Shown here: one piece after another, positions 2,541 to 53,656 of the stretch
How positions within the stretch are numbered: position 1 is the stretch's first letter
Layout of the letters: each line of letters begins with the position of its first letter
From: Chiloscyllium plagiosum
Taxonomy: Eukaryota
Direction of reading: 5' to 3'
Assembly (NCBI RefSeq): GCF_004010195.1
Contig: NC_057752.1
Span: forward strand, 209,241-273,240
Length of the DNA: 64,000 nucleotides
Notes under the pieces: model-generated
Seen by the model: only the letters and a program-made list of their open reading frames with translations
The model's database searches: none
What the model was told of the DNA's origin: nothing
Translations under genes and position numbers: made by a program

Positions 2541-5260
2541 TCTGAGTATTTGAGTCTCAAGCGTTTTCTTTTTCACTAGCATTTGTGTAACAGCTTCCTG
2601 GGTAAAGATGTGTAATAATATTAATATCTCAGTCATGTCCTCTGCCTCCATCTATAGATATATGTTCCTTTTGGGCCCGAACTCCCTCAATCCTCTTGTT
2701 ACTGCTCTGCAATATTAAATGACAGCAGAACCCCAAAGCTATCTTTCCAGCTCCTCTTTGAAACAGGATATTTTGCACCTAAATGAAAACCGAAGCTGGG
2801 GCAGATAATTTACTGTCCCATACAAAAGATGGGACCCAGACAATGCAGCATCCCCTTAATACTATACTGGGAGCATCCATCTACATTACATGCATAAGTT
2901 TCTGGACATCAGCCCATGACCTTGTTTTTGTTTTTATTACATTTTTTTTCTACATGTCACACTTAATTCCTGTCAAATTCTAATTTTTTTTTAGATGTAC
3001 ACTCTTGATCCTCTCCTTTTAGAGGCAATTCAGAAGAGGTTCACCTGCAATAAGCAGATTGTTTTATGAGGCTGTACCTGTTTTCGTTTGAATGTAGAGC
3101 GAGGGAGGACTTGATTGAAGAGTATAAGATCCTGAATGATCTTGAGAAGGTGGACATGAAAAGAATGGTTCCTCTTCTGGGTCAGTTCAGAATGAGGGAA
3201 TACTGTTTTAAAATTTGGGGTCACTTTTTCACGACAGATGAAACTTTTTTTTGAGGGCTGTGCAATTTTGTAACTGCCTCTGAGGATGGTGGAGGCGGGG
3301 TCACTAAATATTTTACTTATAACCAACCTATTCAGGAAAATATGTTACATACCTCTGGAGTAGGTGGGACTTGAACCCAGACCTCCTGGTCCAGAGGTAG
3401 GGACACTACTACTGTTCCACAAGCGCTCAAAGGTCAATAAATTCCCAGGGCTCTATTTATTTAAATCTACATCCCAGAGTACAAAAGGAAGTGGCCCTAT
3501 AAATAGTGAATGTGGTCATCTTTTAAGGTTTTACAGACTCTGTTACAGTTCCTGTGGATTGGAGGGAAGCCAATGTAACCCCTCTATTTTAAATGGGAGG
3601 CAGAGAAAAAAATTAGAATTAAAGACCAGTTAGCTTGATGTCAGTATTGGGGAAAAATGCTTGAGTCCATTTTAAAAGTGTTAATAGCAGAGAACCTGGG
3701 AAAACAGTGACAGATTAGACAGTCAGCATAGATTTACAAAAGGGAAATCATGCTTGACAAATCCAGTGGATTTTGTTTGAGAATGTAACGTGTAGAGTTG
3801 ATAAGGGGGAGCCAGTGGATGTGGTTTGTTTGGACTTTCAGAAGGCTTTTGATAATCCCACTTAACAAATTAGCAAGTAAAATTAAAGTACATGGGACTG
3901 GGGGTAGTACACTGACATGGATAGAAAACTGGCTGGCAGACAGGAAACCAATTTGGACCAAATAGGTCTTTTTTTCTTCGTGGCAGGCAGTGACAAGGGG
4001 GTTCCACAGGAATCTATGCGTGGACCCCTGATATTCACAATATATATGAATGATTTTAGATGAGGGAACTAAATGTATATCTCCACGTTTGCAGATAACA
4101 CAAAGCGAGAAGGGGACATGAACTGTTAGGAGGATACAGACATGCTTCAGTGTGATTTGGACAAATTGAATTAGTGGGCAAATGCAGTAAAATGCAGATA
4201 AATGTGAAGTGATCCACTTTGATAGAAAAAGCAGGGAAGTAGGTTATTATCGGAATGGTGGTAGTGAGTTTTGAGAATGGTGGTAAATTGGGAAAGGGGG
4301 AGGTACATTGAAACCTGGGTATCTTTGTACACCTGTTCCTGAAAGTAAGGCTGCAGGTGGTGAAGAAGGCAAATGGTATGTTGGCCTTCATAAAGGATTA
4401 GAGTACAGGAGCTGGGATGTCTTCCTGTAATTGTACGGGGTCTTAGAGACCACACCTGGAGTATTATGGATAGTTTTGGTCTCCATATCTGAGGAAGGAT
4501 ATTCTGGCTGTGAAGGGACACCAGACTGATTCCTGGGAATGACAGGTAACAAAAGACTGGATTGGTTTGGACTATATTCACTGCGTAGTTTAGATGAACA
4601 ACAGGAAATCTCAGAGAAACCTATGAAATGCTTACAGGAACAGGCAAATTGGATACACAACTGGCTTGATGGCTGGAAACAGAGGGTAATAGTGGAAGCA
4701 TGCTTGTCGGCTGGAGGCCTGTGAGTAGTGGAGTCCCTCGGGTTGGTGCTGGGTCCCATTACTGTTACCTATATCAATGCTGGGCCATTACTGTTATCTA
4801 TATCAATGATTTGGATGAGGATGTACAAGGCATGATTAGTAAGCTTGCAGATGACACTAAAATAGGCAGTATTGTGGACAGTGAGGATGTTTATCAGAAA
4901 TTGCAGCTGAACCTTGATCAGCTGGGGAAGTGGGCCAAGAAATGGCAAATGGAGTTTAATTTGGATACGCGTGAGGGCTTGCATTTTAGAAAGTCAAATC
5001 AAGATAGGGGTTTCATGGTGAATGGTAGGGCCTTTAGGAGTGTAATGGAGCAGAGGGACCTTGGAGTTCAGGTGCATGGTTCTCTGAAAGTGGAGTCACA
5101 GGTAGACAGGGCAGTGAAGAAGGCTTTTGGCACACTGGCCTTCAGTCAGGGGAATGCGTATAGAAGTTGGGAAGTTGCGTTGCAATTGTGCAGGACATTG
5201 GTGAGGCTACACTTGGGAGTATCGTGTTCCGTTTTGGTCACCTCGCTATAGGAAGGTTGT

Positions 5261-18767: not shown

Positions 18768-20122
18768 GATGATCCACAGAGGGTGGTATCCCATCATCAA
18801 GTCACCCTTTATTTACACTTGAAGAGTTCTTGACTACAGTACTGCCTCTTTAGAATCAGTTCTGCGTCCCAGAATCTCTGATACTCCTATTTATATTTTT
18901 TTTGGGACACTCCTGATTTTCTTTTTGTAAGCATGAGACACAGTGAAGGACATAAGGTGTACAAATCTTTATTCAATTTCCACCACCAGGAAGAAAGGAA
19001 ATACCCAAGTGGCCAGTGACAAGCAGTGTTCTTCACATCAAAGGGCAATGCTGCATTATCAAACAGTGAAGAGGAGGGCAGGGATTAAATCAAAATAGAG
19101 TTGGAGGGGGAGACATTCCTGTTTGTTTTTCTTTTGGCAAACTTTTTTTTTTCTTTAGCATAATTAGAGGACACTCCTTTTTTTCTTCTTCTTTTCCCCC
19201 ACACTACCGCCGAACTGTGGTAGTGCTTACTTTTTCCCCAGCACCCAGACACTTTTTTCCCCCCTTTTTACCCCCACACTATCGCCTAACTGCGGTAGTG
19301 CTTATTCTTTTTTCCCCAGCACCCAGACACTCTTATTTATTTTTTTTTAAAAACCCCCACACTACCGCCTAACTGCGGTAGTGCTTATTTTTTCCCCAGC
19401 ACCCATGTTGTGTGTGTGTGCAGGTGTGAGAGACACAATGTGTACACATCTTTATTCAGTTACCACCACCAGGAAGAAAGGAAACACTCGAGTGGCCAGT
19501 GACAAGCAGTGCCCTTCACATCAAAGGGCAATGCTGCGGGATCGAACAGTGAAGGGGAGGACAGGGATTAAATCAAAATAGCATTGGAGGGGGAGACACT
19601 CCTGTTTTTTTTTCTTGTGCACAGTACACTGATCCAGCTCCCTCAGAGCCAGCTCTGAGCAAACTGAACCCCTGATACTTCTGTCTAATTGTTTTTAACC
19701 CCCCACATTACCACCTAACTGTGGGAGTGCTTATTTTTCCTCAGCACCCATGTTACATGTGTGCAGGTGTGAGACACAGTGCAAGACACCAGGTGTACGA
19801 ATCTTTATTCAAATTTCCACCACCAGGAAGAAAGGAAACAGCTGAGTGGCCAGTGACAAGCAGTGCCCTTCACATCAAAGGGCAATGCTGCGTGATCAAA
19901 CAGTGAAGGGGAGGGCAGGGATTAAATCAAAATAGAGTTGGAGGGGGAGACACTCCTGTTTGTTTTTCTTTTGGCACCCTTGGCACTGCGGTAGTGCTTA
20001 TTTTTTTTCCCCAGCACCCAGACACTCCTGTTTGTCTGTCAGTCAAGTCTCCCTGATTGGGGCTGTTAATCTGGTCCAATCAGTGAACTCATTCTGATCT
20101 CCAGCTTATTACAATCACTACA
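18768..20122 (-). mobile_element. Short LTR-like repeat hosting an array of Tx1-like 3' ends
   Basis: Minus strand starts TGTAGTG and carries CCAAT boxes (~20053-20083), a TATA (ATATAAATAGGAGTATC, 18880-18896) and AATAAA (18808-18813). Interrupted at the TATA by 18897-20029. Confidence 0.6.
18880..20029 (-). repeat. Array of truncated Tx1/L1-clade 3' ends separated by a repeated GACACTCCT target motif
   Basis: Motif copies at 18880, 18906, 19112, 19170, 19248, 19326, 19595, 19674, 19949 and 20021. The inserts are reverse complements of the 3' end of the element at 52509-53454, each with a poly-T (poly-A on minus) end. Confidence 0.88.
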
Positions 20123-47060: not shown

Positions 47061-47949
47061 AGAATCTGTGATAGACAGTGTCCCTATCTTGGGGCCAGAG
47101 GGCCTTGGTTCTAATCCCACCTGCTCCAGGGATTGTCATAACATACCTGAACAGGTTTTTTTTAAATGATGCATAGCACAGAGGAAATTTCTATATAGTC
47201 TGCTGCTGTACACTACTGATTTGTCCACTGCCTGGACACGCTGTGGCGTTCTGTTTTGCTGCAGGGCAGCAAGGACCACCAGTGGAGTGCTCTCTGTTGC
47301 GAACTCTTATATTTCTAAATACCTCTGATATTTGTTTGCAGGAAACTATATCACCTGTTTAGTTACTTGAAGAATCTTTTGGCTATACTTCAGTTGCATT
47401 CTTTTCATCATCAGGTACCCAGTGCAGAAAAGGGCATGATCAAGGTGGAAGACTCCCTCGTGGGCCTAGCTAAAGTAGCCAAAATACGGTCCAGGCAGCA
47501 TGCTGTGGTGGGAGTCCAAATTCTTGACCAAATGCCCCTCTTCTACAGCTACATTTGCACCTGGGTATCTTTGGAGAGGGAGTACACGGCATCAAGCAGG
47601 ACCTTCAAAGCTTTTAGAATTGGTTCTGCAGGGGTGGGATGCATTATCTACCCCCTCCAAAACTATTTGGATTTAATTCAAATGCCTCCTTTCTCCACAC
47701 CCACCTGGTTTTGAAGTTTTAGTTTTTATTTCACTGCTGAGTGGGCAACGTATGATATTTGTTAATTGGGTAATTAGTTAATTTGTTGGGTTTTATTGCA
47801 TTTTTTAAAAATGGATTCTTTCCCAGTGGGAAGGGAAAGGTCCAGAAAGAAGAGGTATAAACTGGTGTTTGTGCTGGAGTATAGATGCGCAATGAAACCC
47901 TTGGAAATCTCTGAAAGTCTTTTGCTGTGTAATTTAACATATGGAATGC

Positions 47950-52334: not shown

Positions 52335-52508
52335 TGTTTCACATCGGCGAGGATTGCTGATGGGATCTTCAGTTATCTGTTGTTCATTATGTGGGAGAGG
52401 AAGTGAATGGAGGTGCTGGCTTCATGATACCCTAATTTGAATCATTGAAAATCAATTAGCCATTAGTAAAGGGAGATGAAAGTTGATACAGAATAGAAAG
52501 TGGCCCAG

Positions 52509-53454
52509 CGGGAGCCTGTGCCCCACAACCTGAGCCGCCTCCGGAATTTTAATTTTGTTCCCTTCCAGGGGGTAAAAAGGAAGGCCTTATATCGACTGCT
52601 GCTGCACACCGTCCACCTCTTCTCCATCATCCACCGTCCGGACACGCCTTGGCATGCCCATTTGCCACCGAGAGATGGGGATCCCCAGTGGAGGGCTCTC
52701 CCTTTCTCTCGGGGATCTGGGGTGGCGGGTGCTGCACACAGCAGTCCCCTGCAACCGCAGATTGCGGTGGTTCACGGACTCCCAGCCCAACTGCTTGTTC
52801 TGTGGCGCTGTGGAGTCCGTGGACCAGGTGTATATTGGGTGTGGGCGTTTGCACTCCCTTTTTGATTTTCTGAAAAACCTCCTCCTCTGCTTTTGGTTGC
52901 ACTTCAGTCCCACGCTCCTGGTCTTCGGGCACCCGGTACGGAGGAGGGAGGGCAGGTCTGAAGACCTCCTCGTGGGTCTGCTCCTGGGCCTGGCCAAACT
53001 GGCCATCAACAGGTCGAGGCAGCGGGCCGTGGAGGGGGTCGTTAGGGCCGACTGCCTGCCCCTCTTCCGCGGTTACGTTAGAGCCCGGGTGTCCTTGGAG
53101 AAAGAGCACGCAGTGTTCACCAACACCCTGGAGTTGTTCAGGGAGAGGTGGGCGCCGCAGGGAATGGAGTGTATTATTTCCCCCTCCAACTCTATCTTGA
53201 TTTAGTCCCTACCCTCCCCTTCACTGTTTGATCACACAGCATTGCCCTTTGATGTGAAGGGCAGTGTTTGTCACTGGCCACCCGGGTGTTTTCCTATCTT
53301 CCTGGTGGTGGAAATCGAATAAAGATTCGTACAACTTGTGTCTCTCACTGTGTCTCACACCTGCACACACACACCATAGGTGCTGGGGAAAAAAATAATA
53401 AGCACTACCGCAGTTAGGCGGTAGTGTGGGGGAACAACAAAAAAAAGAAAAAAA
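52509..53454 (+). mobile_element. Tx1/L1-clade non-LTR retrotransposon, 5' truncated (ORF2 C-terminal CCHC region + 3' UTR)
   Basis: DLGWRVLHTAVPCNRRL...CLFCGAVESVDQVYIGC...FRERWAP*. 3' hairpin cactaccgc/gcggtagtg, poly-A, and 17-bp TSD AATAGAAAGTGGCCCAG (52492-52508, 53455-53471). Confidence 0.9.
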
Positions 53455-53656
53455 AATAGAAAGTGGCCCAGAGCTGTCTGAATGGGGGAAACAAAGTTTA
53501 AAAAAAAATCACATGACACCAGGTTATAGTCCAACAGGTTTATTTGAAAGTACTAGCTACTTTGGCAGGGGGAGGAGATGGAGCAGAGAGAGGAGAGAAA
53601 GGAATGTTAGTGTGCTGGGTCTGTTACTGCTTCTAACTAACGTGCACTTCTTTCAG

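Follow-up and report, generated by a model that had tools for sequence, protein, structure and literature searches.

How could one short site in an LTR of Chiloscyllium plagiosum have been filled with a whole series of inserts, and why do these inserts begin at so few positions? The window, by which is meant the whole stretch of 64,000 nucleotides that was analysed (contig NC_057752.1, positions 209,241 to 273,240), carries on its minus strand, at 18771-20122, one solo LTR that is split at a single site by an array.

The array, its inserts and their host

Ten copies of the target start at 18880, 18906, 19112, 19170, 19248, 19326, 19595, 19674, 19949 and 20021. They separate A-tailed minus-strand inserts, three long, three short and two tiny and A-rich, which bears out the description given in the first-pass annotation. 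The features, in the direction of the minus strand, and the reference copy are as follows.

20021..20122, minus strand: upstream half of the host solo LTR, which contains ATTGG and CCAAT boxes and has target copy 1 at its end; 90.5% identical over 74 nt to the LTR of L061, an LTR-RT-integrase-LTR copy
19985..20020, minus strand: short Tx1 3' piece, junction class 866, shortened on its 3' side
19949..19964, minus strand: target copy 2, with an A-rich tail ahead of it
19700..19948, minus strand: long Tx1 3' end, junction class 666, 3' end normal; 87% identical to 53179-53432
19604..19687, minus strand: degenerate target (19674), about 70 nt of host-LTR sequence of another LTR copy, and A tail
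19333..19603, minus strand: target copy (19595); A-tailed long Tx1 3' end of junction class 666
19256..19334, minus strand: target copy (19326); tailed short Tx1 3' end of junction class 866
19179..19256, minus strand: target copy in decayed form (19248); tailed short Tx1 3' end of junction class 866
19112..19178, minus strand: target copy (19170), tiny A-rich insert, then tail-plus-target (19112)
18916..19111, minus strand: long Tx1 piece of junction class 666 that stops about 35 nt past the internal AATAAA and has its own A tail
18880..18915, minus strand: target copy (18906), tiny A-rich insert, and last target copy (18880) with ATATAAA
18771..18879, minus strand: downstream half of the host solo LTR with AATAAA, its end decayed
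52493..53471, plus strand: 5'-truncated Tx1 copy with ORF2 C-terminus, 3' UTR and A tail, the reference copy; 16-bp TSD (52493-52508 and 53456-53471) at a non-LTR site

Measured against GACACTCCT, five of the ten array targets are exact, three have one mismatch and two have two mismatches. All five exact target 9-mers of the window fall inside the array, with none elsewhere on either strand, and the one-mismatch count over the whole window (25 versus 17.5 expected) is not above chance; the target signal at the array comes from the clustering of exact copies and not from the one-mismatch count. The three long Tx1 3' ends (19948-19700, 19594-19333 and 19111-18934) are 85-88% identical to 52514-53432, and both these and the three short ones (20020-19985, 19325-19271 and 19247-about 19195) have A-rich tails. 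Together the six Tx1 inserts use only two distinct 5' junctions, classes 666 and 866, three times each. Class 866 is found in this array alone; class 666 is found in other loci too, being hot genome-wide and having a 2-nt microhomology. Since the array copies differ from one another by 8-16%, an assembly echo is ruled out. The tail-plus-target at 19112 is a repeat of the one ahead of the 19948 insert (TGCCAAAAGAAAAACAAACAGGA.TGTC).

The two-junction pattern had gone unnoticed earlier, as had two other features. An A-tailed piece of host LTR of about 70 nt, at about 19614-19687, is approximately 85% identical to other LTR copies and matches the local half weakly; it is likely a 3' read-through (transduction) carried in from a donor locus. 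The reference Tx1 copy at 52.5 kb lies off the array target and has its own 16-bp duplication. Internal target copies (L101:1984-2076 and many arrays) often read AGGAGATT where the local LTR has AGGAGTGTC, which suggests that targets can also be imported from donor loci with read-through tails. An older relative of the Tx1 ORF2 end, 67% identical, is present at window positions 47457-47585.

The inserted element is a LINE of about 7 kb that belongs to the Tx1 clade and to the lineage of Xenopus Tx1L, so the Tx1 identity read from the sequence at first sight holds. Its long copies (6.7-7.1 kb) have an upstream ORF and an APE-RT ORF. Every copy examined is broken, and all analyses use natural open stretches of single copies. 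In ORF2, Pfam recognizes an N-terminal APE endonuclease (PF03372) and an RT (PF00078), with the C-terminal zf-RVT below the Pfam cut-off. Upstream of ORF2 lie open stretches of 328-410 aa with a cysteine/histidine motif, and this putative ORF1 has no Pfam match. Against Tx1L of Xenopus (ORF2, P0054, UniRef YTX2_XENLA) identity is 56% for the RT and 42% for the APE, the closest named endonuclease relative being from horn shark (66%). In an RT tree of 39 rows from 38 chosen matches, which contains neither L1 nor named Keno/Kibi rows, the element forms one clade with P0054 and with turtle and sturgeon proteins at a support of 99/95, a value that holds for the whole clade with P0054 and not for the branching inside it. 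Copies show a poly(A) tail, 5' truncation and TSD. Copies in L069, L088, L092, L094, L095 and L144 show internal deletions or inversions of the kind that twin priming typically leaves. A 0.92-kb non-autonomous element with a fixed 5' start at CGCGGGAG was considered and rejected because the copies continue upstream into ORF2.

The host is a Gypsy-order LTR retrotransposon. Its LTR of about 230 bp contains, in order, ATTGG, CCAAT, TATAAA, the target, an initiator-like motif at +30 and AATAAA. In L061 two LTRs (191-419 and about 4867-5096) lie 4.9 kb apart and flank decayed RT and integrase frames, in which RVT_1 is followed by a weak Integrase_H2C2 match (E 0.005); this is the Gypsy order.

Target preference and the host promoter

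The first-pass annotation proposed that the LTR holds a preferred target, which each insertion duplicates so that the site is re-used and grows into an array. Genome-wide samples, comprising the best 25-30 matches per query (best 40 candidates scored) and hence well-matching copies, agree with both proposals. Choosing on Tx1 sequence gave 57 loci, 43 of them with a readable 3' end. Among these 43, the target motif stands behind the tail in 24 (3.7% for shuffled flanks), the motif or a same-strand host LTR in 31, and neither in 12, while 32 hold at least two pieces. At 112 of 150 junctions, 11-14 nt separate the start of the motif from the first element base. Loci chosen on the LTR carry Tx1 at this one site, in the LTR sense, in 15 of 58 cases (8/29 read by eye, with two more ambiguous, and 7/29 in a second LTR sample). 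Random flanks and local tandem duplication of a single insertion had been named as the outcome that would speak against re-use; across the genome the flanks depart from random, and the arrays are not accounted for by plain tandem duplication. Target specificity is a strong preference and is not strict, the off-target copies including the one at 52.5 kb.

The target (about 14 bp) lies directly behind the presumed TATA box of the host LTR. The initiator-like motif at +30 after CCAAT-TATAAA was read from two strictly matching empty LTR copies, and the boxes, putative TATA included, would by their sequence and order have promoter roles. In 42 loci the CCAAT box and the first target copy are followed immediately by an inserted piece. 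Insertion leaves CCAAT and TATA together upstream and displaces the putative initiator and the downstream half of the LTR. The earlier proposal that insertion parts the CCAAT boxes from the TATA/start region is not supported for the TATA box, which stays with the first target copy behind CCAAT. Only 15 of the 42 upstream target copies still read TATA(A/T)A, and the upstream copy of the array at 18771-20122 has lost this reading. Capture of the host LTR promoter by the inserts is plausible in view of their position, their orientation and the LTR-like heads of both the Tx1 element and a passenger element described below; an internal start near repeat position 719 is an alternative. In one poly(A) single-cell run, 3831 reads fell mostly on the 3'-UTR repeat (approximately 13:1 sense) and on an unrelated high-copy repeat within the reference, with almost no body reads and no start sites, and a second run gave zero reads. 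Priming on genomic A tails would look alike, so this read pattern is evidence neither way on expression.

The passenger is an A-tailed element of 1.8 kb that uses the same LTR site and orientation as the Tx1 element and has no evident coding sequence and no Rfam match. Examples are L180:7736-9545 and the tandem copies in L183, and a genome search returned 2533 first-look candidates. Over its first 50-70 nt it is similar to the portion of a variant LTR that follows the target, scoring above all 500 shuffles in 4/4 copies. Truncated passenger junctions are repeated in five loci; a rare-variant gradient of the kind described next for Tx1 is absent (0/9 versus 2/49, from three pairs only).

Shared 5' junctions and their origin

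Junctions were compared among target-flanked pieces of 95 de-duplicated loci, with positions within +/-1 counted as the same. The same 5' junction is used by 68 of 239 within-locus pairs and by 191 of 14812 between-locus pairs; permutation gives a mean of 4.1 and a maximum of 12 against the observed 68, and an earlier version of the within-locus count gave 51 of 198. Sharing is present in 28 of 44 multi-insert loci. We consider it probable, at roughly two chances in three, that a LINE of the Tx1L lineage prefers the LTR site in sense and duplicates it at each insertion, and that the exact 5' junction shared by about a quarter of within-array insert pairs arises when a new copy completes its 5' end by copying from a resident insert.

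The evidence lies in how similarity is distributed along the shared pieces. Counting substitutions only and one pair per locus, same-junction pairs share rare substitutions at 28 of 98 within the first 60 nt, 1 of 43 at 60-100 nt and 4 of 212 beyond 100 nt (first versus last class, Fisher p 6e-12), and different-junction pairs at 2 of 104. A tails are unshared (2/122 versus 41/3000). The typical second copy has the front of a resident and an unrelated remainder. Sharing confined to the first 60 nt or so, together with unrelated tails, argues against plain tandem duplication and for junction borrowing. The near-junction signal is carried by about a dozen loci, half of it coming from L003 and L004, and mismatch is lower near than far in only 14 of 22 pairs. 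Same-junction pairs are no more often adjacent than other pairs (24/68 versus 77/239), which means that the donor need not adjoin the cut, or that later insertions came between. Hot junctions exist at about 666-669, 718-727 and 745, each in four to eight loci. A hairpin with an 11-bp stem in the 3' UTR (window 53238-53266), seen when a head copy was folded, coincides with several hot junctions and with most of the head starts described below. By eye, the start positions show no 15-nt erosion ladder.

LINE insertion begins with a bottom-strand nick and reverse transcription from the A tail, and a downstream top-strand nick then gives the duplication, as is established for LINEs (PMC2881922). 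In the borrowing model the cuts at the LTR target would be made by the element's own endonuclease. At an occupied site the top nick would fall exactly on the resident's 5' junction. The freed top-strand end could then be extended by tens of bases along the resident DNA, or the cDNA could invade the resident, and the extended strand would anneal with the new cDNA by homology. The outcome would be a new tail and a new target copy with an old junction, and the tract copied from the resident beside the cut would measure 30-60 bases, sometimes 100-150.

Alternatively, the borrowing could come later: the endonuclease re-cuts an internal target without insertion, and short gene conversion overwrites one junction with that of a neighbour. 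Such conversion would leave the same footprint, with the first 30-60 nt shared and the 3' parts unrelated, and it fits the missing adjacency and the upstream tail common to 19112 and 19949. However, far-apart starts would then give long tracts more often than is found, and coupling to insertion is a better fit both for the two-piece loci with one junction (L004 and L022) and for the weak tendency of the upstream copy to be the younger (27 versus 16). We regard later conversion as unlikely, at about one chance in six.

Independent insertions followed by unequal crossover or tandem duplication would make the shared junctions products of recombination. Unequal exchange that expands TSD-separated tandems is described for R1 (10.1101/158386). 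Here a few pairs (L133 and L181) are near-identical throughout, and 3' ends, in a mirror test, are shared by 26 of 733 pairs within loci versus 203 of 21531 between, about four times background, so true duplication or unequal crossover contributes. As the main route to shared junctions it is largely refuted, and we give it less than one chance in ten. Each 5'-sharing pair should be accompanied by a 3'-sharing pair with its tail, whereas tails are shared as rarely as noted above and 3' sharing stands at 3.5% against 29% near junctions. Moreover, crossover can account neither for loci of two pieces that share a junction and differ in their 3' parts nor for full-length copies whose head takes its start from the junction of a short neighbour.

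In favour of a route in which array transcripts are reverse-transcribed back into their own locus, same-junction copies frequently stop close to the internal AATAAA and carry a new A tail (nine ends with an A tail lie at 830-839), and arrays contain A-tailed LTR-derived pieces. This route predicts a match over the whole length, whereas similarity is at background beyond about 100 nt, and the RNA of a 3' fragment cannot give a full-length element with the same junction. Templating of whole copies by array transcripts is refuted, and the route as such is very improbable, at about one chance in twenty. Least probable of all is that every insert is independent and that microhomology, RT stops or an internal start favour a few positions: the hot junctions, and the heads that cluster at 702-740, speak for it, but the enrichment rises when junctions found in at least four loci are left out (46/130 within versus 63/8781 between) and most repeated junctions are private to one locus, with shared private variants, so recurrence is refuted as a general cause and remains a partial cause for the three 666 inserts of the present array.

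Junction borrowing also alters the reading of an array as a record. The first-pass annotation saw in it a spacer-like record of insertions, and a clean record of independent events is not what is found: 5' junctions appear often to be copied from residents, and order tracks age weakly. The upstream copy is less decayed in 34 of 50 loci (p 0.015; 36 versus 14 in a cruder version) and in 17 of 24 of the promoter-anchored subset (p 0.06, Wilcoxon 0.32). Strict CRISPR-like polarity was rejected, decay order showing only a tendency.

The 5' head and comparison with known systems

Loci picked on the unique 5' UTR have a repeat of the 3' region directly upstream of it in 29 of 30 cases (28/29 without the query's own). 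This head repeat consists of the element's own ORF2 end and 3' UTR, stops about 135 nt short of the 3' end and is between 43 and more than 1200 nt long. Behind it come some 50 nt that resemble the stretch of the host LTR immediately after its putative start (30/38 against one LTR copy, E 3e-4) and that beat all 300 shuffles in 7 of 8 copies. A recurring Tx1-LTR chimera, considered as a separate SINE, proved to be this 5' end of the full-length element. Of 24 head starts, 16 lie in the 40-nt zone 702-740, which may be a real transcription start. Six heads (L134, L140, L145, L146, L119 and L121) have as their exact starting point the junction of a 3' piece that lies in their own array, and a copy of that neighbour's own RNA cannot explain such a head. 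In 5 of 16 elements, and in 4 of 6 heads over 200 nt, the best match of the head is the 3' copy of its own element (mismatch 9.4% versus 11.1%). Where a head is long and has no neighbour, its closest match tends to be its own 3' copy, which lends weak support to a jump like that proposed for Drosophila TART.

Several arrays contain A-tailed fragments of the element's 5' end (head and up to about 110 nt) as inserts (L005, L010, L017, L027, L095, L110, L122, L125 and L126), implying that short or prematurely ended transcripts may be mobilised. At L099:1400-1510 a full-length Tx1 body starts in internal sequence of the host retrotransposon, the usual head being absent. In L077, just upstream of a Tx1 piece at 1501 whose 5' junction lies within the LTR target, there is a short stretch that we take to be 28S rRNA-like; it has no Rfam match at E 0.01.

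In the borrowing model the head repeat would give full-length cDNAs the same homology route, and it could be re-lengthened by copying from a resident or by jumping onto the 3' copy of the same element. The CCAAT and TATA boxes of the LTR would help transcription of the inserts, with the repeat as an expendable leader. More speculatively, and with odds that we put clearly below even, the element may be a LINE that lives on the promoter of another retrotransposon with a self-renewing 5' leader. Truncated tails would then serve as landing pads that capture new cDNAs, fix their 5' junctions and rebuild the terminal repeat, and the array would belong to the replication cycle, in convergence with TART/HeT-A and with LTR strand transfer.

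The first-pass annotation knew of no Tx1 family with such a target, and to that extent novelty is lost: the crocodilian families Tx1-8_Crp and Tx1-4_AMi already prefer LTR retrotransposons (PMC4494074). Crocodilian Tx1 elements (with Tx1-Mar and SINEU-3) are described as having tandem insertions around the TSD, a target-sharing passenger and captured 5' heads, and transcription from the flanking target was proposed for them (PMC4494074). The likeness to the present family covers LTR preference, TSD tandems, a non-autonomous passenger and captured heads. However, the crocodilian families group with Keno and the present one with Tx1L, and their heads are U1/U2 snRNA where the present head is the element's own 3' region and host LTR; the LTR targets are compared by description. 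Tx1L of Xenopus laevis inserts at one site of the DNA transposon Tx1D (PMC1950540). The present element shares its RT clade and its habit of inserting at one site of another transposon, but it goes for a Gypsy-order LTR, with roughly one copy in four off target. In the secondary literature on Tx1L that the search covered, neither arrays nor borrowed junctions nor a 5' repeat are mentioned. Similarly, a literature search outside whose reach most subscription papers and Repbase/Dfam lay returned no paper on this Tx1 family or on junction borrowing in insertion arrays, and no Tx1 with a 5' repeat of its own 3' end.

TART of Drosophila has a direct repeat at its 5' end and in a subterminal 3' position, and a template jump was proposed to lengthen the 5' copy; HeT-A obtains its promoter from upstream sequence, and both form head-to-tail arrays (PMC1636488). 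The present element likewise repeats a subterminal 3' segment at its 5' end and forms head-to-tail arrays. TART and HeT-A belong to another clade and have telomeric targets without TSD, whereas the target here is an internal LTR site with TSD, and unlike that of TART the present repeat includes the ORF2 end, has a widely varying length and often takes its start from a neighbour. The element is TART-like in its terminal repeat only and is not of the TART lineage; if the proposed reading is true, such a repeat arose independently in a vertebrate Tx1. R2-like LINEs that are processed by a ribozyme have an HDV-like ribozyme at the 5' end; here Rfam gave no match at E 0.01, and a home-made pattern, used without a positive control, found none in 7 heads. 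TRE5-A was dropped as a two-ended analogue, since the text examined in PMC5633606 does not bear the analogy out.

Joining of LINE cDNA at the 5' end is still described as poorly resolved (PMC2881922). In human L1 templated insertions, short DNA (<250 bp) beside the site is copied into the junction, and an annealing-type switch was proposed (10.1101/2024.08.27.596794; PMC11702581). These cases are rare (22) and draw on non-L1 DNA, whereas the template in the present arrays would be a homologous resident, with sharing in well over half of the multi-insert loci. The arrays hold many natural events with an identifiable junction template and a tract mostly of 30-60 nt; if the reading is true, homology beside the cut can raise precise or full-length insertion, which is relevant to LINE-based gene insertion. 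For R1, P and other elements, double-insertion tandems separated by the TSD show that a duplicated target is re-used, and distinct 5' truncations were taken as a sign of independent insertion (10.1101/158386). Here inserts that seem independent often share the truncation point, and identical truncation points in tandem LINEs would then be no proof of DNA duplication. Set beside these systems, LTR targeting alone is an ordinary new example, and what sets this family apart, within the literature searched, is the 5' head and the probably borrowed junctions.
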